Shown one piece after another: positions 3,993 to 27,042 of a stretch of DNA of 64,000 bases. The notes under the pieces are model-generated. The model searched no databases and was not told where the DNA came from. It worked only from the letters and a program-made list of their open reading frames with translations. Each line of letters starts with the position of its first letter. Position 1 is the first letter of the stretch. A program made the position numbers and the translations under genes. This DNA is from Nannocystales bacterium (GTDB lineage: Bacteria > Myxococcota_A > Polyangia > Nannocystales > Nannocystaceae): contig JBOEGF010000021.1 in assembly GCA_050633305.1 (NCBI GenBank), positions 32,001 through 96,000 of the forward strand, given 5' to 3'.

Positions 3993-4873
3993 TGGGCGGG
4001 TCCGAAGTCGGGGGGCACGACCGCGACCGGGACCGGAGCGAACGAGGCGAGTTCTCCTCCGACGCTGGCGGTGAAGATGCGCTCGGTCCGGGAGAGCCTT
4101 CGCGATCCGCAAACGATCATGGCAGCTTGGACGTCGTCTGCGACCTCCAGGAGTGCAGGGACGGTCGCGCCGACCTCGGAGCGGGGGGTCAGCGAGGCGC
4201 GTCCGTGTTCGGCCAGGAACGAGACCAGCTTGTCGGCTTCCTCTCGTCGGTATCGTTCACGCAGCGCGACGTAGTCCGCGTCGGGGAGCGTTGCCCACCC
4301 CAGGCCCCCGGGTCCTTGGAGGGCCTGCACGGCGAGAAGGGGGCGACCGACGGAGGTCGCGAGTGCTTCGCCGAAGCTCAATGCGGCGAGGGACGCTTCT
4401 GTGGCGTCTACCGCGACCATGACGGGGCCCACGCCAGCGGTGGCGGCCGTCCAGTCGGTGGGGACGACGACGGTGGGGCTGTGAAGTTGTCGTAGGGTTC
4501 GCCGGGCGATCCGTCCCAGTCGGACGAGGCTCCTGTTTTCGCGCGGAGCCTTGCGGCCCAAGAGCAGCGTGGCCCCCTCGTGTCCGGCGGTTTGGGACAG
4601 CGTCCTTGCGACGTCGGTCGAGAGCTCCGCGCGGACACCTCCGATGGCGGCGGATGCCGGGGAGCGCTCGACGAAGGCTTGCGTGGCCTGCTCGACGCGG
4701 CCGAGCATGTCGGCGGGGTCCGGTCCCGCGAACATGCCGGCGCGGTCGCGCAGAACCGCGAGCGCGGTCGCTGGGTTCGCACCTGGTTCGTGGGCATGCT
4801 CGCCAAGCCACGCCGCGAACTCCAGGGCGCCCAGGCAATCGTCTCGCAGGTTCGTGGCAACGATCCACTTCAT
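3989..4873 (-). CDS. Tandem-domain universal stress protein
   Basis: Two USP units: MKWIVATN...LGRIARRTLRQLHSPTVVVP and VMVAVD...ASVGGELASFAPVPVAVVP. Confidence 0.88.
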   Translation of the reverse strand: MKWIVATNLRDDCLGALEFAAWLGEHAHEPGANPATALAVLRDRAGMFAGPDPADMLGRVEQATQAFVERSPASAAIGGVRAELSTDVARTLSQTAGHEGATLLLGRKAPRENRSLVRLGRIARRTLRQLHSPTVVVPTDWTAATAGVGPVMVAVDATEASLAALSFGEALATSVGRPLLAVQALQGPGGLGWATLPDADYVALRERYRREEADKLVSFLAEHGRASLTPRSEVGATVPALLEVADDVQAAMIVCGSRRLSRTERIFTASVGGELASFAPVPVAVVPPDFGPAQ

Positions 4874-4879
4874 CCGCTC

Positions 4880-4922
4880 AATATGAGCCCGGGCGCGCAT
4901 CGCCGGCGCGCAAGCTCTGCGC
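4880..4922 (-). promoter_or_regulatory. Perfect GCGCA-N5-TGCGC box, 22 nt, then CATATT (-10-like)
   Basis: Box 4908-4922, hexamer 4880-4885, ATG 6 nt further. Confidence 0.65.
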
Positions 4923-4924
4923 CC

Positions 4925-5401
4925 TCAGGTCCGGGCCGACATCAGAGCTTCAACAGATTCGGCCAGTGTTTCGGGGGTCCAAGCGCCCTCTGGCAGGAAT
5001 GGGGGCAGCCAGGCTGCAGCCTCCTCGATCGAGGCCAGCATGCGCGTGGGACGTGGAGGTCTGCCGAGCAGCAAGAAGGTGTTGATGAAGGACCGAACCG
5101 CGATACCGGCGAATCCGGTCATCAAGATCACGTGGGCGCGTGCGACCTGGAACAGCATGGGGTCCCGCGTCAGTTCCACGGAGATCCGGCGGACGTCGTC
5201 GGAGAAGCTGGGCGTGCCGTCTGCCGCGATGTTGACCAAGGCGGCGGGCCCATGACTCGACTCGAACGCTCGGCCATGCTCGGCCATCGCCTCCATCTGC
5301 GAGAGCTGCGGGGCGCCGTCCCACACCGCGACGAACAGGTGGTCGAGCCCAAAGAATGTGACGCGCTCATCCCGAAACAACGGCGCGGGGCTGCGGCTCA
5401 C
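4925..5401 (-). CDS. Hypothetical protein, STAS/SEC14-like small alpha/beta domain of myxobacterial type
   Basis: LFVAVWDGAP, GFAGIAVRSFI, ASIEEAAAWL pattern; TACCCT 7 nt before GTG. Confidence 0.6.
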   Translation of the reverse strand: MSRSPAPLFRDERVTFFGLDHLFVAVWDGAPQLSQMEAMAEHGRAFESSHGPAALVNIAADGTPSFSDDVRRISVELTRDPMLFQVARAHVILMTGFAGIAVRSFINTFLLLGRPPRPTRMLASIEEAAAWLPPFLPEGAWTPETLAESVEALMSART

Positions 5402-5507: not shown

Positions 5508-6917
5508 CTAGCTGGATGAACTGACTCGTCGGATTCGAACCGTGACGTCGTGAGCGGGGGGGTAGATCCCCAACCCAGCCCGGCTGAACTCGAACGACGG
5601 GTCGGGGTCGGATCCCAGCTCGATGTCCCAGTGGGTCAGGACCGTCGTCATGAAGAGCTTGATCTCGTTGATCGCGAAGAATCGACCCGGGCACATGCTC
5701 GACCCGGCTCCGAAAGGCATCAGCGGCAGGGGGACGCGTTGGCCGTTCTTGTAGAATTGCTTGCGTCCTCCCTCGCCATGGAACCGGTCGTACTTGTACG
5801 TGAGCGGATCCTCGAACACGTCGGGGTCGCGGTGGGTGATGAAGGGAGCCAGACACACCCGGTCGCCTTTGCGGAGCGAGTACGTGCCGCCTTCGGTCTC
5901 GAGTGAGAAATCCTCGAGGGCTTCACGAACGGTGAGCGAGCCGCTGCTCAGTCGGAGCGCTTCTCGGATGGCGCTGTCGAGGATCTTGAGCGCATCCAGG
6001 TCGCAGGCTTTCGGGCCCCCTTGCGCGCTGCTGTGTTCCTTGACCTCCGCAAGCACCGCGGCGAGGCCTTCCGGGTTGCGCAGCAGCCAGTACAGCGTCC
6101 AGAACGTGGACGGAATGGTGTTGGCATGAATCGCCCACAGGGCAGGTAGTCGCATGTGGCCGCGCTGGGCAGGTGGAAGCGCATCGATGAATGGCTGCCG
6201 ATCGCGGATCCAATGGCTGGGATCCTTTCCCGGCAGCTTTGCCTGCCCGAGTCGTCCGAGTGCCTCGTGTCCGGCCCGTACCAGCGGACGCGGAAGCCCT
6301 GCGACCAACATCGGAAACTGCCGATCGAAGACTTCGAAGTCAGCTCGAAGCTCTTCGGTGACGATCCCTCCACCAAACAGCGCCTCGGTCCCAGCCCGAA
6401 ACATGATGTCCCAGATCATGTCGTACAGCTGGGCGTCCTTCCATGAGTCGGAGACAGCCTGTGGAATCAGGTCTTCGAGCCTGTCTCCCATGTTCGAGGA
6501 GAGTTCCTCGAGTCGCTCGCCCCGCAGCCGGGTTCGGCCGATGGTCTCGATCTCCTCCATGTCGAGCTTGTCGCGCGCATCGGGGAGGTTGAACGCTCGT
6601 GCGAGGATCCCGTCGCTGACCGGGTGAAAGCTCAGCTGCTTGGCCTTGAGTACAGCCGGCGTGCTCAACGGGTCGAGGACGAATGTCATCCGATCGCCAG
6701 CGATGAACAATGTGAAGACATCGCCATGTGCGGCTTGGCATCGCTGCACGAATGAGGTGGCGTCTTTCCCGAACGCAACTGCGACACCCATGTAGGGGAT
6801 CACACCGCGTACCAAGGGGGGCTCACCGTCGCGGCGGCGTCCGTTGGCGGCCTGCAGAGCGGCCCAGTAGCCCAAAGGGGCGAGCATCGAAGCCCCGATC
6901 GCGAGCAACGCGGACAC
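5508..6917 (-). CDS. Cytochrome P450 resembling the CYP7/CYP8 clan (sterol hydroxylase-like)
   Basis: Haem motif PFGAGSSMCPG, EALR (ExxR), I-helix LWAIHANTIPSTFW, N-terminal hydrophobic anchor followed by RRRDGEPP. Confidence 0.93.
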   Translation of the reverse strand: MSALLAIGASMLAPLGYWAALQAANGRRRDGEPPLVRGVIPYMGVAVAFGKDATSFVQRCQAAHGDVFTLFIAGDRMTFVLDPLSTPAVLKAKQLSFHPVSDGILARAFNLPDARDKLDMEEIETIGRTRLRGERLEELSSNMGDRLEDLIPQAVSDSWKDAQLYDMIWDIMFRAGTEALFGGGIVTEELRADFEVFDRQFPMLVAGLPRPLVRAGHEALGRLGQAKLPGKDPSHWIRDRQPFIDALPPAQRGHMRLPALWAIHANTIPSTFWTLYWLLRNPEGLAAVLAEVKEHSSAQGGPKACDLDALKILDSAIREALRLSSGSLTVREALEDFSLETEGGTYSLRKGDRVCLAPFITHRDPDVFEDPLTYKYDRFHGEGGRKQFYKNGQRVPLPLMPFGAGSSMCPGRFFAINEIKLFMTTVLTHWDIELGSDPDPSFEFSRAGLGIYPPAHDVTVRIRRVSSSS

Positions 6918-6951
6918 AAGCTTCGAATAGCACAGAGCGCTCGCGCTCGCC

Positions 6952-8313
6952 TCAACCTGCCGGTGGGTTCACTACGAGGTTGAGTCCAAACCCGGTCATG
7001 TCCGAGTATGTATAGGGATCGTCGAGGTCGTCGACGACAAGCTCAGTCGCGAATGTATCCGGGTTGATCTTGAACGCCGAGTCCACCGTCTGATCGACGA
7101 CCCAGATGAAGCCCTCGACGTCGATCGAGATGCCCACCGGTGTTGCGCAGCCGGGAAGCTCGATCGCCTCGGCCATGACATCGCCGGTGACCGTGTCGAT
7201 GAGGCCTAGGCCGCAACCGTTGGACGGACCGGTGTCGTCGACGGCGATCCAGGCCCGGTTGTCCCGATCGATCATCATGCCGCGCATCAGCTGGTTGCCG
7301 GTCTCGATCGTCTGCCACTGGGTCGTGCCGACGTCGTACTTCATCGCGACGCCGCGAGAGGTGAGCCACGGGTTTCCGAGCTGGTCGAGCGCCATTCCGT
7401 ACGAGAGCATCGGGTCCTTGCCCGGCTGGGGGGGAAGCTCGATGCGCTCGACCTCGAGGGTTTCGGAGTCGATTCGAATGAGGGGGCCCAGCTGCCAGCC
7501 GAGCACCCAGAAGTCTCCGTCGCGGTTCACCGCACCGCCGTAGGGGCCGTAGTCCAGGGCGTTCCACGGGATGTCGACCGTGTCTTGTATCTGCCCCGTG
7601 GCGCCGTCGAGTCGGTGGACACGCGCGACGTTGTCTTCGAATGCGTACCAGCCGACCCACAGTCGCGGGTTGGGGTCGGGGTCGCCGTTCTTCGTGAGCG
7701 TTCCTTCCCAGGCCGTGGGGCGCGGGCCGTGCTCGAAGATGTCGCTGGGGATCAGCAGGTTCCACGCGACGCACTCGTCCTCGCCCCAGGCCAACACATT
7801 GTCGGGTCCGTTCGAGGTCTCGATGCTGCCGTTGCCATTGCGGTCCTCGCAGTCTTCGACGCGTGTCACGATTTTTGTGACACCGCCGAACCCACCGATT
7901 TCACTGCCACGGTTGGAGACCGCTACATCGCCGAGCAGGTTGACCGAAGTTCGGGAGGGCTCCGCCTGGTCGTTGGGCCCCGTCTCGTAGCGTGCGACCT
8001 CTTCGCCGGTTTGCGTATCGATCTTCGAGACGGTCCCTGGATCCGAGTTGGCGATCCAGATGTAGCTGAACTCCACCTCGAGCGGAGGCTCGGGACCGGT
8101 GTCGGTATCCTCGCCGACGTCGAGTTTGTCTCCCGTGTCATCGCCGAGGGTGGGGTCCGTGCTGGTCGAAGGGGTGGAGGAACTCGTCGGGTTGTTGGTG
8201 GGGTTGGTCTGGGACTCCGCGACCTCGTCTTCACGCGGAGGCTCCGCGCAGCCCGCCAGCGCCGCTGCCATCAAAACCGCCCCTATTCGCACCCTTCCGT
8301 TCAAATCCTGCAT
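6952..8313 (-). CDS. Lipoprotein with Thr/Asp-rich linker and Vgb-like beta-propeller
   Basis: Lipobox ALAGC; FSYIWIANSDPGTVSKIDT, PSRTSVN, PYGGAV, PYTYSDMTG motifs common in myxobacterial propeller lipoproteins. Confidence 0.75.
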   Translation of the reverse strand: MQDLNGRVRIGAVLMAAALAGCAEPPREDEVAESQTNPTNNPTSSSTPSTSTDPTLGDDTGDKLDVGEDTDTGPEPPLEVEFSYIWIANSDPGTVSKIDTQTGEEVARYETGPNDQAEPSRTSVNLLGDVAVSNRGSEIGGFGGVTKIVTRVEDCEDRNGNGSIETSNGPDNVLAWGEDECVAWNLLIPSDIFEHGPRPTAWEGTLTKNGDPDPNPRLWVGWYAFEDNVARVHRLDGATGQIQDTVDIPWNALDYGPYGGAVNRDGDFWVLGWQLGPLIRIDSETLEVERIELPPQPGKDPMLSYGMALDQLGNPWLTSRGVAMKYDVGTTQWQTIETGNQLMRGMMIDRDNRAWIAVDDTGPSNGCGLGLIDTVTGDVMAEAIELPGCATPVGISIDVEGFIWVVDQTVDSAFKINPDTFATELVVDDLDDPYTYSDMTGFGLNLVVNPPAG

Positions 8314-10604: not shown

Positions 10605-11909
10605 CTACGAGCTGCGTAGCCCCAGGCGGAAGGTCTTCGCAACTCGGCTGACGTCTGAGGGCTCGACGCCCGCTTGCTCTGCGTGCTCGTTCCACCGCTC
10701 GACGGAGCTCACGACGTGCTCGATCGCCTGCTTCGCTCGCGCGGGTTTGAGCCCCGAGGTGGAGGCGAAGGTCATGAGGTCGTCGCGAGTGAAGTCGTTT
10801 CTCTTCCCCGCCAAGCTCATCTGGTGATCCCGTGTCCAGGCACCCTGAGGGCTGTACGAGTAGGCCACGTCGTATGCAGGGGAGAGTCTCCACGAGCCAG
10901 CACGGTCCATGAGGAACGAGATGTTTTTGACGTGGTCGTTTTGGTTGCGAGCCACGACGTTGAAGACGGCGCGCTTGTACTGTTGTTCGACGACCCCCAT
11001 TCCCTGCCGCAGGGATTGGAGAGTTCGGACCGCCTGCTCGTACGAGTACGAGACGGGGTCGTTGAAGTCGAAGTGCTGCATCGCTCCGAGCGACTGCATG
11101 TGAATCTTGCGCCCCCGGTTGTCCCGATCGAATCGACGGGTCATGAAGTGACTGCGGCCGCCCTCGTGGTGAAGTCTGCACTCCGACATCTCGATCCCCG
11201 CGGCCACAGCCATCAAGTGATACGCGTACTCGATCTTGCCGAAGCCCTGTGGGTCCGCGAGTTCTTTGTCGCGGTTGTTCGAGACGCCGTCGAACTTCAG
11301 GAGCCAGTGCTCGTAGCCTTCGTCGAGTTCCACTTGTCCGGACTTGAACTCTCCGGTTTCTCGATTCCACGCGAGGACGGCCTTGGCACGGGCCCCGCCG
11401 GCCGAAGTCCCCACGCTCAGGATGTCTTCGAGAGCCTCCCCATCGTTGGCACCCCCGAGCGTTCCGACAAGGTCTTCACGTTCTTGCATGACCCTGTTGG
11501 CCAGGTCCACCAACTGGGTCACTTCCAGCGTCTTCGAACGCGATGTCTTGCGGATGGTGGGCTGAAACTCGAGTGCCCCGATGCCTCGGTTGCCGATGTA
11601 GCAGAGGCGGTCGACCGGGCTGAACTGGCCCTCGTTTCGGCCCGTTTCGGCGAGCCACGCGTCGATGAGTCGGTTCCCGAACTTGTCTGGCAACGCGTCG
11701 GCGAGCATCCCAGGAAGTCCCTTGAAGGTCTCCTTGGGCAGGGCCGAAAACTCGTAGGGTGCCTCCCGTACCGGCATCTTCACAGGGGCGACTTCGATGC
11801 CCGCGCCCACGAACTTCGGGTCGTACTGAAACACGCCGAGGGCACGGGCTTCGTCCCAGCTGACAGCGCCGATACGGCGCCCCCACAACATCACGCTTGC
11901 GTCAGTCAT
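10605..11909 (-). CDS. hipA: HipA-family Ser/Thr kinase toxin (catalytic Asp position is Asn)
   Basis: ADALPDKFGN, GNRGIGALEF, P-loop GTSAGGARAK, FMTRRFDR, RNQNDHVKNISF, LSPAYD; start ATG 11909 overlaps the antitoxin end. Confidence 0.92.
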   Translation of the reverse strand: MTDASVMLWGRRIGAVSWDEARALGVFQYDPKFVGAGIEVAPVKMPVREAPYEFSALPKETFKGLPGMLADALPDKFGNRLIDAWLAETGRNEGQFSPVDRLCYIGNRGIGALEFQPTIRKTSRSKTLEVTQLVDLANRVMQEREDLVGTLGGANDGEALEDILSVGTSAGGARAKAVLAWNRETGEFKSGQVELDEGYEHWLLKFDGVSNNRDKELADPQGFGKIEYAYHLMAVAAGIEMSECRLHHEGGRSHFMTRRFDRDNRGRKIHMQSLGAMQHFDFNDPVSYSYEQAVRTLQSLRQGMGVVEQQYKRAVFNVVARNQNDHVKNISFLMDRAGSWRLSPAYDVAYSYSPQGAWTRDHQMSLAGKRNDFTRDDLMTFASTSGLKPARAKQAIEHVVSSVERWNEHAEQAGVEPSDVSRVAKTFRLGLRSS

Positions 11910-12240
11910 CGGTCTCGTCACCCCATGTCCAGGTTGATGGCGCCGGTCGTGCCGATGCCGGGCTTGCCCGTCTGCGCTCGGTGCCCTTCTTTGATACGCG
12001 CTCGATGGGCCCGACATCCCCTTTGGGCAGGGCGGAGAGGAGGGCGTCTGTCAGGTCGAGTGCGGCGGCGACCCGAAGGAAGGTGTCGAAGCTCGAGCGT
12101 TCCCCCGCCTCGAGCCGTCGAAGCGTACGCACTCCGATCCCCGCCTTCTCGGCGAGAGCGGCTTGCGTCACGTTTCGTGACAACCGTGCTCGCGCGATGC
12201 GTCGTCCGATTTCCTGTTCGACTTGAGTTGGGGTCGCCAT
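11902..12240 (-). CDS. XRE/HTH_3 regulator, putative HipB-like antitoxin
   Basis: IGRRIARARLSRNVTQAALAEKAGIGVRTLRRLEAG; C-terminal WTWGD; directly upstream of hipA. Confidence 0.88.
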   Translation of the reverse strand: MATPTQVEQEIGRRIARARLSRNVTQAALAEKAGIGVRTLRRLEAGERSSFDTFLRVAAALDLTDALLSALPKGDVGPIERVSKKGTERRRASPASARPAPSTWTWGDETDD

Positions 12241-20869: not shown

Positions 20870-21664
20870 CTACACCGTCGGTGGCTTGATGAGCGGGGCA
20901 GAGCTCGCGCCGGGGAGCGGAGCCCCGAACCCCGCTTGAGTCTGTAACGCGCCACTGGCCAGTGCTCGTCGGACCGCCGCCTCGACCACGGGCGCGTGGT
21001 CAGCGTCCAGGGCGTAGATACTCACCTCGATCGTGTTTCGCTCTCGCCGTTCGACCTTCGGCTCATGCACGACCGAGGCCCAGTGGCACCGCATCGCGGA
21101 GCGTACGACGTGGCGCTTGAGGGCGACGAAGTCGACACCCTGAGGTTGCTCGACGGCGAATGCGTGCACGTGCGCGCCGGAGACGCTCTGGGTCCGCCGC
21201 AGGGTCTCGCGGCTGATCTTGCCGTACGGGATCACGGCTTCGTCCCCCTCGGGCGTTTGCACGACCAAAGAACGGGCCCCGACATCCAGCACCCGGCCTT
21301 CGACATCACCGACACGCACGTGATCACCAACGCGGCACAGCCGCCCGAAGCGAAAGGCGACGCCGTTGATCAGGTCGTACAACGAGGACCACGAGAACAC
21401 GACGAGCGTCCCGATCAGCGAGACCAGGACCGCTGCGAAAGCGGGCTCTCGGGCGAGGAGGGCAGCGAGGCCTGAGGCGATGTACGCCACGAGGAGCGTG
21501 AGCCCCAGGACCGGCGCAAAACGCTGCAGGCCGTCGCGGACCCGCGCAGGCGCTGGCACCACCCGAAACAGGAAGGCGATCAGCTGCAGCACGGCGATGA
21601 GCGCCACCGCGCCCAGCGTCAAGAAGGTGAGGTCTACGATCGACCGGAAGAGATACTCCGTCAT
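20870..21664 (-). CDS. MscS-family small mechanosensitive channel domain protein
   Basis: Three TM segments then DLINGVAF...RVGDHVRVGDVEGRVLDVGARSLVVQTPEGDEAVIPYG; ATGA overlap with the upstream gene. Confidence 0.85.
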   Translation of the reverse strand: MTEYLFRSIVDLTFLTLGAVALIAVLQLIAFLFRVVPAPARVRDGLQRFAPVLGLTLLVAYIASGLAALLAREPAFAAVLVSLIGTLVVFSWSSLYDLINGVAFRFGRLCRVGDHVRVGDVEGRVLDVGARSLVVQTPEGDEAVIPYGKISRETLRRTQSVSGAHVHAFAVEQPQGVDFVALKRHVVRSAMRCHWASVVHEPKVERRERNTIEVSIYALDADHAPVVEAAVRRALASGALQTQAGFGAPLPGASSAPLIKPPTV

Positions 21665-24600
21665 CCCAACATCCCCTGACTGCGGAGGCTATCCGTCACC
21701 AAGTGAGCAACGAATCGGTCCACGTGAAGAACGTCCCTGGCATCGCGGCGAACCAGACCCATCCGTGACAAGGCGGATATGTCCACCTCGAGGTCGTCTG
21801 AGGAAACCGAGGTAATGCGCTGGAGTCGGCGCATCGTCACCTGCTTGTGCACCACGAGCTGGACCAGCAGCGCACTGAGCTCCACCCGAAGCTGTTCGAT
21901 CGTCTCTGCACGCGGTCGAGTTGGCCAGCGCATGATCAGCGTGTTGGCGTCCACCTTGTCGATGTGGGAGAGCCACGCCCGGAGTGCGACTGCGACAAGC
22001 CCGCCCGAAAAGTCGAAGTAGCGGGTGAACAGTCTCGCCTGTCGCCAGGGGGCGAGTTCCTCTTCGGGGGTGCCCGCGAGCTCGAAGTTGATCCCCGTGG
22101 ATCCGTGTCGCAGGGAGATGATCGACTTGAGGGTTTCGGCCGGCAACGGGTCACACTCGACCACCGCCAACGCGGACTCGCTGAGGCGGGCAAAGCTGCT
22201 CATGAAGCGCCACGCGTGCACGTTGAGGTTTGCGACAAACAGGCAGCGGTCGCCGTGTTTTCCGAGCAGGCGGATGAACTCCTCCATCAAGGCCATGCCT
22301 CGGGGGCTGCGCTCCCACCACATCTCCAGGTCGTCGAACACGAACACCGAGCCATCGGGCACCTTGCTCAGTAGCTCATCGGGTTTGCCGCGGTCTCCAA
22401 CCTCCGCTTCGAGCGCAACGCGCAAGGCCGCGGGCTCGATGGCGCCCCCAGGAGGTGGGCTCACACGGAAGACCTTGCGGCGCGCGAGGAACTTGGTGGT
22501 GAGAACGTGGCACAGCGCGGTCTTTCCTGCGCCCGTCTCGCCCACGACGAACAATGCTCCCTGTCCGCCGTTCTCGTGACGCTTGATCGCGGCCTTGATG
22601 CGGGCGAGTTCGGCTTGGCGTCCGACCCAGAAGGTCTCGCTGATGGTGGCCTGGCCCGAGAACAACTGCCGATAGTAGAAGGGGAGCGCGCGCAGCAAGT
22701 CCCGGCGAGGGGTCAGGTTCTGAGCGAGCTCCGCGATGCGGTCGACGACGGTGGTGCCGGTTCCGGTTGCGGTGCGCCGGAGCCGACGCGCCAGCAAGAC
22801 CCCGGTGCTGCGTCGATACAGCAACGCGACGAAGGTCTGGCGGGCATAACCCGCCGCGCTGGAGACGACGCGCCGCACCCGAGAGACAGCCTTGTGGCTC
22901 TCTCGGCTTCGGATGTAGTGCGAGAGGCTGTCGGAGCGGTTGGTCAACGCATATGGAGCCGTCTCGTCCCGCAGCGTCCCCAGTTGTTCCGCGACTCGGG
23001 ACGAGAACGTCTCAGACGCGTTACGCAGCACTCCCAGCTCGGTGTCGAGACGTCGGGCGCCTTCCCTGGCCACGGCGACCACCTGCTTGCGGAAGTCTTG
23101 GTTCTCCCACCCGCCGGCGGCTTCCATGTCGCCGATCGTGAAACTCAGCAGGCGTGTCACATCTCGAGCCACCCCAACCGTGCGTTGCTCTTGTAGTGGC
23201 AGACCCGAGATCTCCTGGTTCACCACGTCGAGAAACTCGGTCTCGATCAGATACTTGACCAGAGGCCGCACCGAGACGGTGACTTCGTCCGCTTCCATCG
23301 AGACGCCGCTCTCCAGCGCGGCGATCGACTCGTCGCTGAGCGTGGTGGCGGACTCCGGGAGGTCCTCGATGCAGCCGTCGATGTCGCGCGCGATGGTCTC
23401 GAGTACGGCCTGTCCATCGAAGGACGCACGCAGCTCTCGCTCCTGCGGAAGCTTCGGGGCTCGTCCCGCTTGGGCTTCGCGAATGAACGCGCCGATGGTC
23501 TCGTGGATGTGGACGCCGTCGTTGAGGACGGACGACTTGATGCCCTGTGTGACCTCCGTGCGGGCGCGATGCGCCAGCGCAGAGAACCGGTGCTGGAAGG
23601 CGGCGATCTGCAGGCCCAGATGCGCGCGCTGCAGGAGAAGCCGCTGGTGATCCTCCCACGGTTCGGCGCTGAGGCGGAGCGACGCCAGCTGAGCAGGAGC
23701 CTTTCGGGTACGGCGACGCTCGGTGCGAACCAGGTGCTTTACGTCGACCCGCTTGAGGTCGTCGGCGAAGGCTTGGCTCATGTTGTGGACGCGCCTCGCG
23801 AGGCGGACCCCGGTACCCTCTGCCAGATCCTGCGCCAACGTGATGGCGGCATCGACATGCGAGAGGAGCCGTTGCTTGCGAGCCTCGATCAGAGCGGGAT
23901 CGGCCTCGCGACGTTCGATCTTCGCGGCGAGGGCACTGAGCTCGGTCGCCGCTTCGTTGAGGATCTTGCCCAGCTGGACGGCCAGGCGGTGGCTGCTGGA
24001 CTGCACGCTGCGTAGCCACTGTTCCAGCAGGTCGGCGGCACTGACGTAGACGTACCAGGACTGCAGGGACGCCAGAGGCACGGTGTAGCTGGGTGCGCCG
24101 CGACGAACGGCGGCCCAGAAGCGGCGGCGACGCTTGAATGCTCGCACCGGACGGGAATCCCGAGAGGTTGGTGCGAACGCGTCGGGCTCGGCGGTGATGT
24201 CGAGTCGCGCGGGGGCGTCGGAGGCGAGTTTCCCCAGCCCCTCGACAAAGGCGTTGAGTGTGGACTGCAGGCTCTTGGCTTGGCTTGGAAGCGTCTCCTC
24301 TTCGTACGCGGCTACGAGCTTCCGCGCCTGAAACAGGAACCCGCCTTGGGCCCGCCCGGCGGGCTTCCGTGCGCGCGCGGGGTCAGCCTCTTCCAGCCCC
24401 TTCCGCACGATCTCAAACTGACGCTCGAGCAGGTTGCGAACGTCTCCCAGCAACGATTCGTGCCGCGCGAGCACGGGGGCGAATCCCTCCTGGAACAGGT
24501 CGTCGGAGAGCTTGGTGTACGACTCCGCGAACGCGGCCGCGGGGGCCTCGAGTGCGGGGTTCTCTGGCAGCTTGAGGACACGGAGCTCGGTGAGACTGGC

Positions 24601-26784
24601 TTGCGCTCGCTCCTGGGCTCCCGCCGCCGCGCCCCCGTGGCCTGCGACCGGGAGAACCTCGACGAAGAGCGACGAGCCCTGGACGAGGAGCGTCGTCCCC
24701 AGTCCAGCGAGCAGCTCGTCGAGGTGGGTGAGTGCCTTGCTGTCGAAGCGCCGCAGCGGCGGCAACCCGAGAACAACCAAATCCGCGTCGCCCGACTCTT
24801 GGCGGATCGTGCTCTCGAACCCGTGCGCTTGCGAGGGGCTCGCAACAACCTTCACCTTGGCTTCGACCCGGGCGTCTGCCAGCACCCCGCGCATGGCGTG
24901 CAGCAAGTCGTCGCTCAACGAGGTGTCCTCGGAGACGAGCAGGAAGCGGAGCTTGGCGCCCTGCCATTGCTCGAACCTGGTTAGGAAGCGCATCAGCGAG
25001 AGGCTGAGCGCGACGTTGCCCTGTTGCGGACGCCACCAGATGTCGACGCGTTCTCGCTTGCCCCACGACCGTTCTCGGTCGTAGTGCAACATGACCAGGT
25101 TGAAGTCCTGCTTGACCGTGTCCTTGACCAGGTCGACGAATCGGTCGGTGTTTTTGCGGTCGACGTCCCAGTCCAGGAGGACCGTGTTCGGGTCGAGTCC
25201 GGTGAAACCGTGGTGCCGACACGCTGCGGATACCGTGTCGTAGAAGTCGGTGCTGACGGTGCGACGCCGGAACACGCCCACCTGAGCTTCATCCTCATCG
25301 ATGGAGGCTGCGGCCTCTTGTTTCGTGTTGACGAGCTCGAAGTCCGTGAGCAGGCCGCTTCCGGTGATCAGCGCCCGGGAGAGGTCGAGCAGCTCGGGGC
25401 GCGACTCGCTCCCCATCTGGCTGAACAGCAGCACGTTGGGTCGCCAGTTTCGGCGCTGCCCTCGTCCTTGGCTGAGGCGATGCAGACCCGCCCGCACGAT
25501 CGATGACCAGATGCCCTCCCAGGTGTCGCCTGCGTCGAGCGTGAGCTGCCTCCGCTTCAAGAACAGGAACAGCCCCGAGAGTAGAATCGTCGCCCCCGCC
25601 ATCGCGGCGAAGTCGAGCTGGATCATCACGATGATGCAGGTGACCGCACCGAGCACGCTCACCAGCCGCGGGATTCTGAACTGGGGGCGGAAGTCGGGGC
25701 TTGCCCAGCTCTCGATCGCCGAGCTGATGTTGAGGAAACCGTATGTCGCCAGGAAGACCATCGACACGATGCGCGCGATCGCGTCGAGTTCGGCGATGAG
25801 AATGCCGCCCTCCGCGATCGCGAACGCCAGCAGGAGGGCGTTGCGCGGTTCGTTGTTCTTCCCGTGCCCCTTGCCGAACCACCGAGGTGTGATCGAGTCG
25901 ATCGAAAGCGCTTGGAGAATGCGCGGCGCCCCGAGAATGCTGCCCAGCGCTGAGGACAGCGTCGCGCCCCAGATCCCCGCGGTGACGAAGGCGGGGACCA
26001 AGGAAATCTCCGCGAGGACGTTCGTGTTCGCAAGCTGGGCCGGGTCGACGCGGTAGGCGAGGAAGACCGCCAGCGCGACGTAGACGATGAGTCCGACCGC
26101 GATCGCGGCCAGCGTTCCGCCGGGGATCGAGCGCTTGGGATCCTTGAGGTCGCCCGACATGTTCACCCCGGCGGTGAAGCCTGTGACCGCCGGGAAGAAG
26201 ATTCCGAAGATTACGCCAAGGCTTGGGGCGTTGGGGGCGACGTCGAAGTGACCGGAGGCAGGCACGGGGGAGGAGCCCCCCAGGAACACCGAGACCAGCG
26301 ACAGCGCGATGAGTACCAAGATGAGGTACTGCGTCTTGATCGCGAAGGACGTCGAGATCAGGGTCACGAGCGTCAACGCAATGACCGTGACCGTTCCCGC
26401 AACGCGAACGTTCGCGGGAGTGACGTCCATGTCGATGAACGCCAGGAAGCTTTCGCAGAAGCCGATCACGTAGAGGCTGATCGAGAACGCCAACCCGACG
26501 AACAGCGCCAGGCCCAACGTGCCGCCGATCGGCAGTCCTAGGCTGCGAGAGACGATGTAGTAGGGCCCGCCAGCGCCGACGTTTTTGTCCGTCGCGATCG
26601 AGGAAATGCTCAGCCCCGTGGTGACCGAGATGACGTGAGCCACCGCGATGACGCCCAGCGCCATCCAGAGCCCGCCGTTCCCCACGACCCACGGCAAGCG
26701 CAGGTACATGATCACGCCAAGGATGGTGAGGATCGATGGCGTGAAGACGCCGCCGAACGTTCCGAACTTGCCGTCTTTGCTCAT
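21661..26784 (-). CDS. SLC12/CCC cation-chloride cotransporter fused to a helical region and C-terminal P-loop ATPase
   Basis: KFGTFGGVFTPSILTILGVIMYLRL, GGPYYIVSRSLG, IFFPAVTGFTAGVNMSGDLKDP, NWRPN, VDIWW; then FWVGR, Walker A GETGAGKT (22519-22542), Walker B VFVFDD; 1707 aa from ATG 26784. Confidence 0.9.
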   Translation of the reverse strand: MSKDGKFGTFGGVFTPSILTILGVIMYLRLPWVVGNGGLWMALGVIAVAHVISVTTGLSISSIATDKNVGAGGPYYIVSRSLGLPIGGTLGLALFVGLAFSISLYVIGFCESFLAFIDMDVTPANVRVAGTVTVIALTLVTLISTSFAIKTQYLILVLIALSLVSVFLGGSSPVPASGHFDVAPNAPSLGVIFGIFFPAVTGFTAGVNMSGDLKDPKRSIPGGTLAAIAVGLIVYVALAVFLAYRVDPAQLANTNVLAEISLVPAFVTAGIWGATLSSALGSILGAPRILQALSIDSITPRWFGKGHGKNNEPRNALLLAFAIAEGGILIAELDAIARIVSMVFLATYGFLNISSAIESWASPDFRPQFRIPRLVSVLGAVTCIIVMIQLDFAAMAGATILLSGLFLFLKRRQLTLDAGDTWEGIWSSIVRAGLHRLSQGRGQRRNWRPNVLLFSQMGSESRPELLDLSRALITGSGLLTDFELVNTKQEAAASIDEDEAQVGVFRRRTVSTDFYDTVSAACRHHGFTGLDPNTVLLDWDVDRKNTDRFVDLVKDTVKQDFNLVMLHYDRERSWGKRERVDIWWRPQQGNVALSLSLMRFLTRFEQWQGAKLRFLLVSEDTSLSDDLLHAMRGVLADARVEAKVKVVASPSQAHGFESTIRQESGDADLVVLGLPPLRRFDSKALTHLDELLAGLGTTLLVQGSSLFVEVLPVAGHGGAAAGAQERAQASLTELRVLKLPENPALEAPAAAFAESYTKLSDDLFQEGFAPVLARHESLLGDVRNLLERQFEIVRKGLEEADPARARKPAGRAQGGFLFQARKLVAAYEEETLPSQAKSLQSTLNAFVEGLGKLASDAPARLDITAEPDAFAPTSRDSRPVRAFKRRRRFWAAVRRGAPSYTVPLASLQSWYVYVSAADLLEQWLRSVQSSSHRLAVQLGKILNEAATELSALAAKIERREADPALIEARKQRLLSHVDAAITLAQDLAEGTGVRLARRVHNMSQAFADDLKRVDVKHLVRTERRRTRKAPAQLASLRLSAEPWEDHQRLLLQRAHLGLQIAAFQHRFSALAHRARTEVTQGIKSSVLNDGVHIHETIGAFIREAQAGRAPKLPQERELRASFDGQAVLETIARDIDGCIEDLPESATTLSDESIAALESGVSMEADEVTVSVRPLVKYLIETEFLDVVNQEISGLPLQEQRTVGVARDVTRLLSFTIGDMEAAGGWENQDFRKQVVAVAREGARRLDTELGVLRNASETFSSRVAEQLGTLRDETAPYALTNRSDSLSHYIRSRESHKAVSRVRRVVSSAAGYARQTFVALLYRRSTGVLLARRLRRTATGTGTTVVDRIAELAQNLTPRRDLLRALPFYYRQLFSGQATISETFWVGRQAELARIKAAIKRHENGGQGALFVVGETGAGKTALCHVLTTKFLARRKVFRVSPPPGGAIEPAALRVALEAEVGDRGKPDELLSKVPDGSVFVFDDLEMWWERSPRGMALMEEFIRLLGKHGDRCLFVANLNVHAWRFMSSFARLSESALAVVECDPLPAETLKSIISLRHGSTGINFELAGTPEEELAPWRQARLFTRYFDFSGGLVAVALRAWLSHIDKVDANTLIMRWPTRPRAETIEQLRVELSALLVQLVVHKQVTMRRLQRITSVSSDDLEVDISALSRMGLVRRDARDVLHVDRFVAHLVTDSLRSQGMLG

Positions 26785-27042
26785 GAGCGCCCGGGCTCCC
26801 GGGGCCCTAGAAGTGTGCCTCAGAGGGCGTGTAGGCGGGGGGAGGACCACCGCCGCCTGGGCAGTCGCTCAGCATGCGCAGGTGTGACCAACCCCCCGAC
26901 CAGAACTGATGGCTCCGTGCTGGCGACTACGATGAGTACGCTCCAGCGACACGCCGACCGTTCCCATTGGAGCCGGTGGCCGGTTCCCCGCGAACCGCTC
27001 TCGACCGGACGACGTGCGAGTGGGCTTGCGTCGGCGCGGGGC

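Follow-up and report, generated by a model that had tools for sequence, protein, structure and literature searches.

Does a bacterial chromosome carry a cytochrome P450 (P450) of the clan that includes cholesterol 7-alpha-hydroxylase, CYP7A1, and, if so, what would such an enzyme do in a bacterium? This question is raised by a locus of a Nannocystales bacterium (GenBank assembly GCA_050633305.1; 11.0 Mb, 90 contigs, 92% complete, Nannocystaceae-like). We analyzed a stretch of 64,000 nucleotides of contig JBOEGF010000021.1 (positions 32,001 to 96,000, or C21:32001-96000), which is called the window below; coordinates are positions in this window unless another contig or locus is named. An original prediction, based on the letters of the window, had described positions 5508-6917 as a bacterial P450 of the CYP7 clan that reads like vertebrate CYP7A1, and had suggested an oxysterol or bile-acid-like hydroxylase that bears on the origin of the CYP7/8 clan, or a gene transferred from eukaryotes.

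Identification of the P450 gene

We found that positions 5508-6917 encode a P450 of the CYP7 clan (the CYP7/CYP8/CYP39 group) and that the gene is intact and chromosomal. The list of open reading frames (ORFs) and the translation place the gene on the minus strand, with 469 amino acids and a GTG start, and the plus-strand frame across the same interval is riddled with stops. The original observation was therefore real, but its strand needed correcting. All five strings quoted from the protein at that time (RRRDGEPPLVRGVIPYMG, LWAIHANTIPSTFW, LRLSSGSLTVR, DPLTYKYDRF and SRAGLGIYPP) occur in the minus-strand translation, and the human CYP7A1 strings given for comparison are correct according to the HMMER alignment to PDB chain 3sn5_A.

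5508..6917, minus strand: coding sequence of the CYP7-clan P450; 469 amino acids from GTG, or 459 amino acids from an alternative ATG at codon 11; identified from the ORF, the Pfam match, the CYP7A1 match and the structural model

The protein matched Pfam p450 (PF00067) with 141.9 bits, the cut-off being 22.8. When it was compared with the PDB sequences using HMMER, human CYP7A1 was the best match with a solved structure (E 3.1e-84, 286.6 bits, residues 23-461). CYP8B1 (240 bits) and prostacyclin synthase (222-224 bits) were further matches, and the best CYP51 scored 75.7 bits. The likeness to CYP7A1 is far above chance, and the assignment to the CYP7 clan is borne out by the contrast between the CYP7/8 scores (224-286.6 bits) and the CYP51 score, together with the trees described below.

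We also built an AlphaFold2 model of the protein on a 16-sequence alignment that included one fish CYP7A1. The model had a mean predicted local distance difference test score (pLDDT) of 88.4 and a predicted template modelling score (pTM) of 0.88. The top fold match in Foldseek was CYP7A1 with cholest-4-en-3-one (template modelling score, TM, 0.87; 36% identity), with prostacyclin synthase and CYP8B1 next (TM 0.83-0.87) and CYP51 at about 0.72-0.74. The Foldseek matches listed for the model were all P450s, which bears out the P450 fold.

Conserved residues and the active site

The residues that characterize P450s in general and the CYP7 clan in particular were located on the following segments, named where appropriate by substrate recognition site (SRS).

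6322..6324, minus strand: codon of Asp198 in the F helix, partner of Trp261 and Arg446 in the clan triad; aligns with CYP8B1 D210
6099..6140, minus strand: I helix (SRS-4) LWAIHANTIPSTFW, residues 260-273, with the clan residues Trp261, Asn266 and Thr267; aligned to CYP7A1 LWASQANTIPATFW
5925..5963, minus strand: ExxR motif and SRS-5 EALRLSSGSLTVR, residues 319-331, with E319 and R322 invariant
5685..5717, minus strand: haem-binding loop PFGAGSSMCPG, residues 401-411, with the thiolate ligand Cys409; C409, P410 and G411 invariant
5556..5585, minus strand: SRS-6 hairpin SRAGLGIYPP, residues 445-454, with the triad residue Arg446; aligned to CYP7A1 SRAGLGILPP

The haem loop fits the pattern FxxGxxxCxG, and the ExxR motif is formed by E319 and R322. 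In the alignment, W261, N266, D198, R446 and C409 were present in all 35 bacterial-type rows, T267 in 33 and L449 in 32 of them. W261, N266, D198 and R446 align with W281, N286, D210 and R479 of CYP8B1. The CYP8B1 structure paper describes the I-helix Trp as a 'low ceiling' above the haem and the Asn as jutting into the active site, and it presents the Trp-Asp-Arg network as important in CYP7A1, CYP7B1, CYP8A1 and CYP8B1 (PMC9463588). The Trp and Asn of the I helix, as well as the network formed by this Trp, the F-helix Asp and the surface Arg, are all present in the window P450.

We compared the positions that line the CYP8B1 active site, using two fish CYP7A1 rows together with CYP8B1-like and frog prostacyclin synthase rows. 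F201, V205, W261, A262 and N266 of the window P450 are common to CYP7A1 or CYP8B1 rows, and its I helix and SRS-2 agree with CYP7A1; its SRS-1 and positions 258/259 do not. Ser327 in SRS-5 and Leu449 in SRS-6 are as in the two fish CYP7A1 rows, in contrast to Pro and Phe in the CYP8B1-like and prostacyclin synthase rows; the SRS-5 segment reads SSGSLTVR in the window P450, compared with SSASLNIR in CYP7A1 and RAAPTLLR in CYP8B1. The neighbouring Leu328 differs from the two fish CYP7A1 rows.

These residues also bear on the type of reaction. Prostacyclin synthase is a member of the clan and a strong match to the window P450 (224 bits; TM 0.83-0.85), and we found no redox partner, and no sterol gene, among the 19 ORFs scanned around the P450 gene, so that the earlier remark that no redox partner is adjacent holds over this range. 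A prostacyclin-synthase-like or allene-oxide-synthase-like isomerase, which would rearrange a lipid peroxide and need neither oxygen nor a redox partner, would explain this absence. However, unlinked redox partners are usual for bacterial P450s. In addition, the CYP7A1 score exceeds the prostacyclin synthase score, and the Ser of SRS-5 and the Leu of SRS-6 follow CYP7A1 and not the CYP8 rows. The I helix has Asn-Thr, as in the hydroxylases CYP7A1, CYP7B1 and CYP8B1, whereas frog prostacyclin synthase has Ala at the position of Thr267 (Asn-Ala). We consider such an isomerase very unlikely. Because Asn-Thr is kept where the isomerase has Asn-Ala, the window P450 would be expected to act as an oxygen-activating monooxygenase.

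Phylogenetic position of the window P450

A word-indexed protein search with the window P450 gave 308 matches, among which about 116 unnamed, metagenomic or Myxococcota proteins outranked the first named animal protein, catfish CYP7A1 (39% identity). An exhaustive search gave 279 clusters at E<=1e-30. The closest named homologues are from Nannocystaceae and other Myxococcota. Among the reference genomes, 27 loci hold a homologue; they include Enhygromyxa salina SWB005, Plesiocystis pacifica SIR-1, Nannocystaceae ST9 and metagenome-assembled genomes (MAGs) of Polyangiales, and also one Bradymonadia MAG and one MAG labelled Alphaproteobacteria. In eukaryotes the clan is broad, as judged from the named cluster representatives, which comprise CYP7A1, CYP7B1, CYP8B1-like proteins and prostacyclin synthase of chordates, with Ciona and amphioxus, and the non-animal members from a chytrid (Nowakowskiella), three Amoebozoa, Bigelowiella, Diphylleia and an MMETSP protist. 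The ESM Atlas provided a prostacyclin synthase cluster, an Ascomycota cluster and an Actinomycetota cluster as leads.

Trees were calculated with FastTree (234 rows) and with IQ-TREE (76 rows) under LG+G4 and under LG+C20 with posterior mean site frequencies (PMSF). The IQ-TREE rows were 72 ingroup rows and an outgroup consisting only of four closely related Nannocystaceae CYP51s. All 72 ingroup rows were split from CYP51 at support 100, with the window P450 inside the CYP7 clan. All three trees agreed that the bacterial-type rows, mostly from Myxococcota, form a single clade and that the chordate rows form another. Under PMSF LG+C20 the bacterial clade comprised either 36 rows with a value of 95 in the Shimodaira-Hasegawa-like approximate likelihood ratio test (SH-aLRT) or 37 rows at 76. 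The chordate CYP7A1, CYP7B1, CYP8A1 and CYP8B1 formed a separate clade with support 100, which excluded all bacterial-type rows. Because the window P450 lies outside this chordate clade, it is not a CYP7A1 orthologue; it is a member of a bacterial branch of the CYP7 clan. The more specific claim that the protein reads like vertebrate CYP7A1 cannot be maintained in this form, and its high CYP7A1 score is explained by conserved features that are common to the clan. The suggestion that the locus bears on the origin of the clan is supported.

In the free trees rooted on CYP51, several protist lineages branched below the bacterial clade. This would suggest a transfer from eukaryotes, but the backbone support was 82-89 and the position of Nolandella beside the outgroup is a warning of long-branch effects. 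In the approximately unbiased (AU) test, a tree with the 35 eukaryote-type rows as one clade was not rejected (p-AU 0.667) and was better by 6.44 log-likelihood units; 16 of these 35 rows carry an organism name, and the other 19 were counted as eukaryotic after the first tree, from the way they clustered and the composition of their N-termini. The bacterial clade may lie inside the eukaryotic CYP7 clan or be its sister group, and the exchange may have run in either direction.

The host genome and the origin of the gene

The host genome encodes an oxidosqualene-cyclase-like protein (178.6 bits), a squalene epoxidase, an ERG4/ERG24 sterol reductase (382 bits) and EBP. It also has a separate, true CYP51 on contig C7 (138046-139575), which scored 425.7 bits to Methylococcus CYP51. 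The three enzymes for which a genome search had been proposed, squalene epoxidase, oxidosqualene cyclase and CYP51, were all found, and this Nannocystaceae-like genome encodes sterol synthesis enzymes, as expected of the sterol-making host that had been assumed. Two other host P450s, on contigs C47 and C32, were tried as CYP51 and rejected in favour of the copy on C7. The CYP51 motif GQHTS was present in none of the six other host P450s.

The true CYP51 is relevant because the E. salina orthologue of the window P450, P0039, is publicly named 'Lanosterol 14-alpha demethylase', which would make the window P450 the sterol 14-alpha-demethylase of the cell. The window P450 scored 75.7 bits to CYP51 against 286.6 bits to CYP7A1, and the comparison of 75.7 bits with the 425.7 bits of the host's own CYP51 refutes an assignment to the CYP51 family. 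Given that E. salina also has a true CYP51 (P0389), the name of P0039 is likely a mis-annotation. We see next to no chance that the window P450 is the 14-alpha-demethylase.

Is the gene native to this genome? Its top match among solved structures is a human enzyme, the assembly is of a metagenome type, the sole run holding the sequence is a microbial-mat metagenome, and the local GC content is somewhat lower than upstream (0.63 against 0.69). These points would fit contamination by eukaryotic DNA, a chimeric assembly or a gene acquired from an animal very recently. However, the GC content at third codon positions (GC3) of the gene, 0.77, resembles that of the adjacent minus-strand genes (0.79-0.82), and in two other assemblies (L008 and L010) the same neighbour genes surround the orthologue in a different order. 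Among the 72 genomes of the order, 24 have an orthologue, and these include one-contig genomes of 13.2 Mb and a 7.0 Mb contig. The separation of the bacterial from the chordate clade, and the number of matches that outrank the first animal protein, also speak against a non-native gene. From the one DNA run there were seven short contigs that matched at >=99% and covered 22 of 30 bins. One metagenome contig spans the 5' junction (6893-7043) with zero differences; the 3' junction lies outside the coverage, so the proposed check of read coverage across the flanks was successful on the 5' side and not on the 3' side. Because of the GC3 value, the shared neighbours in L008 and L010 and the bridged 5' junction, contamination or chimerism is very unlikely, and a non-native origin of any of the three kinds is unsupported and, in our judgement, extremely improbable. 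There was no RNA run among the listed holders of the sequence that would support expression.

A further metagenome contig matches positions 4806-5058 and then runs for 255 bases unlike the window, which suggests a strain variant or a rearrangement near 4806.

The N-terminal region

The N-terminus of the window P450 has two features.

6849..6917, minus strand: putative membrane anchor, residues 1-23, a hydrophobic helix; from Kyte-Doolittle hydropathy and a model helix at residues 2-24 (pLDDT 65-81)
6813..6839, minus strand: basic cluster and Pro-rich hinge RRRDGEPPL, residues 27-35; R29, E32, P33, P34 and L35 are invariant in the 16-sequence alignment

The Kyte-Doolittle maximum for a 19-residue window was 1.62, at residue 3, and NGRRRDGEPPL follows the hydrophobic residues 1-23. 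EPP begins at residue 32, compared with residue 31 in two fish CYP7A1s. The anchor hydrophobicity was 1.4-2.3 in ten homologues of the Nannocystaceae core and 2.3-2.8 in five eukaryotic rows, and nine more distant bacterial homologues, which scored 0.37-1.11, are without an anchor. The microsomal-style anchor, basic cluster and Pro hinge of the original prediction are thus present in the sequence and in the model, and it is plausible that the P450 is anchored in the membrane through this putative N-terminal helix.

The length of the anchor depends on the translation start. The public gene call (P0004) begins at Met11 and gives 459 amino acids, with which the anchor would shrink to about 13 residues. 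The longer form from GTG is more likely, because tblastn matches reach query residue 1 in three of the four closest loci and because LLAIGA, upstream of Met11, is conserved among homologues. No sigma-70-like promoter site was found, and terminator-like sites were at chance level.

Proposed function

With a confidence only a little above even, and judging from sequence features, we lean towards regarding the window P450 as a candidate membrane-anchored sterol or oxysterol hydroxylase, that is, a monooxygenase. The N-terminal helix, followed by RRR and GEPP, would tether the protein to the cytoplasmic membrane and leave the catalytic domain in the cytoplasm, in a manner similar to microsomal P450s. 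The electron donor would be encoded away from the P450 gene and would be a ferredoxin system or the CysJ-like diflavin reductase of the host. The latter, the sole diflavin reductase found in this genome (contig C10, L043:589-2424, minus strand, 611 amino acids), has the domains Flavodoxin_1, FAD_binding_1 and NAD_binding_1 and scored 281 bits to CysJ against 204 bits to cytochrome P450 reductase (CPR); it is not linked to the P450 gene and is a possible candidate for the electron donor. The substrate would be a flat polycyclic membrane lipid, to be hydroxylated at a position that is not predictable. It would most likely be one of the cell's own sterols, and the product an oxysterol of the kind that is ether-bound in E. 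salina.

Several observations are consistent with a sterol substrate. According to the CYP8B1 paper, CYP7A1, CYP7B1 and CYP8B1 act on sterols (PMC9463588). Every named functional relative of the window P450 except prostacyclin synthase uses sterols, and CYP51, the next clan out, is also a sterol enzyme. The anchored core clade is confined to a sterol-making family, and the SRS-5 Ser327 and SRS-6 Leu449 match CYP7A1. The host genome itself has the sterol-synthesis genes listed above, and one metagenomic relative is fused to an HAE3/HpnN-like RND lipid transporter. Furthermore, E. salina and P. pacifica, two sterol producers that are in culture, carry orthologues. A report on E. salina describes cholesterol together with ether-bound 25-hydroxycholesterol and other putative hydroxysterols, for which the hydroxylase is left unidentified (PMC10202945).

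A number of findings weigh against this proposal. The CYP7 clan includes a non-sterol enzyme, prostacyclin synthase, and the B' helix (SRS-1) and positions 258/259 of the window P450 diverge from both CYP7A1 and CYP8B1. The hydrophobicity of the anchor is borderline (1.62), the anchor hangs on the GTG start, and no obvious Shine-Dalgarno sequence was seen at this start. Within the order (one family) the gene is patchy: 24 of 72 genomes have it, from 7 of 17 genera, and one genus has no holder among 11, where oxidosqualene cyclase is near universal (69 of 72 genomes). The cyclase was found in all 24 holders of the CYP7-like gene, which says little because 45 of the 48 non-holders have it too. 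EBP does not track the gene either, being present in 19 of 24 holders and in 33 of 48 non-holders, and across the 72 genomes neither the number nor the type of ERG4/ERG24 paralogues was evidently tied to the P450 gene. Of 401 genomes sampled evenly from the phylum, 5 had a CYP7-like homologue, counting that of the window, and 50 had a cyclase. The four holders outside the family (35-41% identity), whose genomes are 84-97% complete, are without a squalene or oxidosqualene cyclase over the Pfam cut-off. Finally, no sterol or redox gene recurred beside the P450 in 15 related loci, where 79 flanking ORFs were scanned, and the 22 ORFs around four further loci likewise showed no gene recurring beside it. 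The function first suggested, an oxysterol or bile-acid-like hydroxylase, is plausible but is weakened by the patchy occurrence, the independence from EBP and the cyclase-free distant holders.

As to the ERG4/ERG24 paralogues themselves, their scores across the 72 genomes appeared to fall into classes of about 330-425 bits (full-length), 210-285 bits and 135-175 bits. The genera hold different combinations of these classes, and the window's genus has only the class of about 330-425 bits.

Alternatively, the window P450 would be a CYP7-clan monooxygenase with a non-sterol natural substrate, such as a fatty-acid derivative, a non-sterol terpenoid or a carotenoid, or one that acts on a sterol taken up from outside; the substrate would then be another hydrophobic lipid, of the membrane or derived from prey. 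The absence of a cyclase from all four holders outside the family, the patchy gene against the near-universal cyclase, the lack of association with EBP, the lack of linkage to sterol genes and the divergent SRS-1 all favour it, as does one cyclase-free holder in which the gene has a Rieske oxygenase and an acyltransferase for neighbours. A fused protein is also of interest here. P0185, a metagenome cluster representative of 1228 amino acids, consists of an RND (resistance-nodulation-division) transporter of the HAE3/MMPL/HpnN-like type (residues about 17-754) and a C-terminal CYP7-like P450 (736-1209). This hints that bacterial CYP7-like enzymes act on transported membrane lipids, and it points to lipids generally, not to sterols specifically. 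On the other side stand the sterol substrates of the named relatives and of CYP51, the restriction of the anchor-bearing clade to a sterol-making family and the agreement with CYP7A1 at Ser327 and Leu449. We regard a non-sterol or imported substrate as unlikely, though it deserves serious consideration, and continue to favour the hydroxylation of an endogenous sterol.

Two other relatives of the window P450, P0124 (923 amino acids) and P0130 (1032 amino acids), have two P450 stretches per chain, in tandem.

Genes around the P450

The genes on either side of the P450 are as follows.

4925..5401, minus strand: downstream ORF of 158 amino acids, without a Pfam family; homologues only in two close loci
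6952..8313, minus strand: upstream gene for a putative secreted beta-propeller lipoprotein of 453 amino acids, 34 bp from the P450 start

The protein encoded at 6952..8313 has a lipoprotein-like N-terminus and a linker rich in Thr, Ser and Pro; its match to Vgb_lyase (beta-propeller) is weak and below the cut-off. Only two close relatives have a homologue in the vicinity of the P450, and there the gene order is different. Downstream of the P450, in addition to the 158-amino-acid ORF, there are two universal-stress proteins, a CBS protein and a cation-efflux protein, and genes for RecQ and a HipA-like kinase are also found around it. The HipA-like kinase (10605-12017, minus strand), two genes from the P450, has HipA_C and Couple_hipA domains and is of the toxin-antitoxin type. 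Further away, a 1729-amino-acid ORF (21661-26850, minus strand) combines an amino-acid permease (residues 35-432) with an AAA_16/AAA_22 ATPase (about 1400-1600), which is an unusual fusion.

In the related loci, isolated flanking genes were an SCP2 gene in L027, a flavin mononucleotide (FMN) reductase gene in L014, and a desaturase gene together with a 3beta-HSD-like gene in L013. In the cyclase-free genome G038, the CYP7-like gene (L038:7371-8645, minus strand) adjoins a Rieske/VanA_C-type oxygenase gene and has an acyltransferase gene upstream.

Annotation and significance

The bacterial branch of the CYP7 clan appears to be undescribed so far; the clan itself is known and is otherwise eukaryotic. 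A full-text search found no paper on a bacterial CYP7-clan P450, with subscription journals and the P450 name lists (D. Nelson) beyond its reach. Because these nomenclature lists were not searchable, the bacterial family may already bear a CYP number. Three papers on myxobacteria or CYP51 (PMC10202945, PMC7947880 and PMC12004948) never use the term 'CYP7' in the main text, and it is also absent from six supplement files of PMC10202945. Public names across the family are inconsistent ('lanosterol 14-alpha demethylase', 'cholesterol 7alpha-monooxygenase' or plain 'cytochrome P450') and therefore mislead.

Among bacteria, cholesterol synthesis is known only from myxobacteria. In animals the CYP7 clan makes oxysterols and bile acids, and the window P450 is an obvious candidate in connection with the bound hydroxysterols of E. 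salina. Its function is directly testable, because the cultured E. salina and P. pacifica carry orthologues. With this family, a third candidate sterol enzyme of the P450 or cyclase type also enters the discussion of whether, and in which direction, eukaryotic sterol metabolism was exchanged with Myxococcota. The fold and the chemistry, for their part, are ordinary for a P450.

A bolder proposal would combine both parts of this argument: the Myxococcota CYP7-like clade would be the bacterial sister or the source of the eukaryotic CYP7/8/39 clan, and the anchored Nannocystaceae enzyme would make the ether-bound hydroxysterols of E. salina. We consider this combination doubtful, although the tree that keeps the eukaryotes in one clade, which was not rejected and scored slightly better, is compatible with it. 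If it is true, then oxysterol-forming P450 chemistry would join oxidosqualene cyclase and CYP51 as sterol enzymes common to myxobacteria and the eukaryotic stem, and the anchored P450 would be the missing hydroxylase of a bacterial oxysterol pathway.

Comparison with known P450s

Vertebrate CYP7A1 (PDB 3sn5, 3dax and 3v8d) resembles the window P450 along its full length, with 36% identity for the human and 39% for the catfish protein and a TM of 0.87. The two share the N-terminal layout, with an anchor, a basic cluster and a GEPP hinge at residue 31-32, as well as the I-helix Trp, the Asn-Thr pair, the Trp-Asp-Arg network, the SRS-5 Ser and the SRS-6 Leu. However, the window P450 lies outside the chordate clade, differs in SRS-1 and at positions 258/259, and has a bacterial host without a known CPR partner. 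In P450 nomenclature, members of one family have >40% identity. Since its identity to CYP7A1 is below this value, the window P450 would receive its own family name within the clan.

CYP8B1 (sterol 12-alpha-hydroxylase) and CYP8A1 (prostacyclin synthase) belong to the same clan and share the fold and the Trp, Asn, Asp and Arg residues, but they have Pro in SRS-5 and Phe in SRS-6, where the window P450 has Ser and Leu. CYP51, which stands for the P450 clan closest to the CYP7 clan, likewise acts on sterols and is common to bacteria and eukaryotes; it differs in its much lower similarity (75.7 bits, TM 0.72-0.74) and is encoded by a separate gene in the same genome. The protist and fungal P450s of the CYP7 clan (Nowakowskiella, Amoebozoa, Bigelowiella and Diphylleia) are at a similar distance from the window P450 and have an N-terminal anchor, the same clan residues and, mostly, GEPP, but their hosts are eukaryotes.

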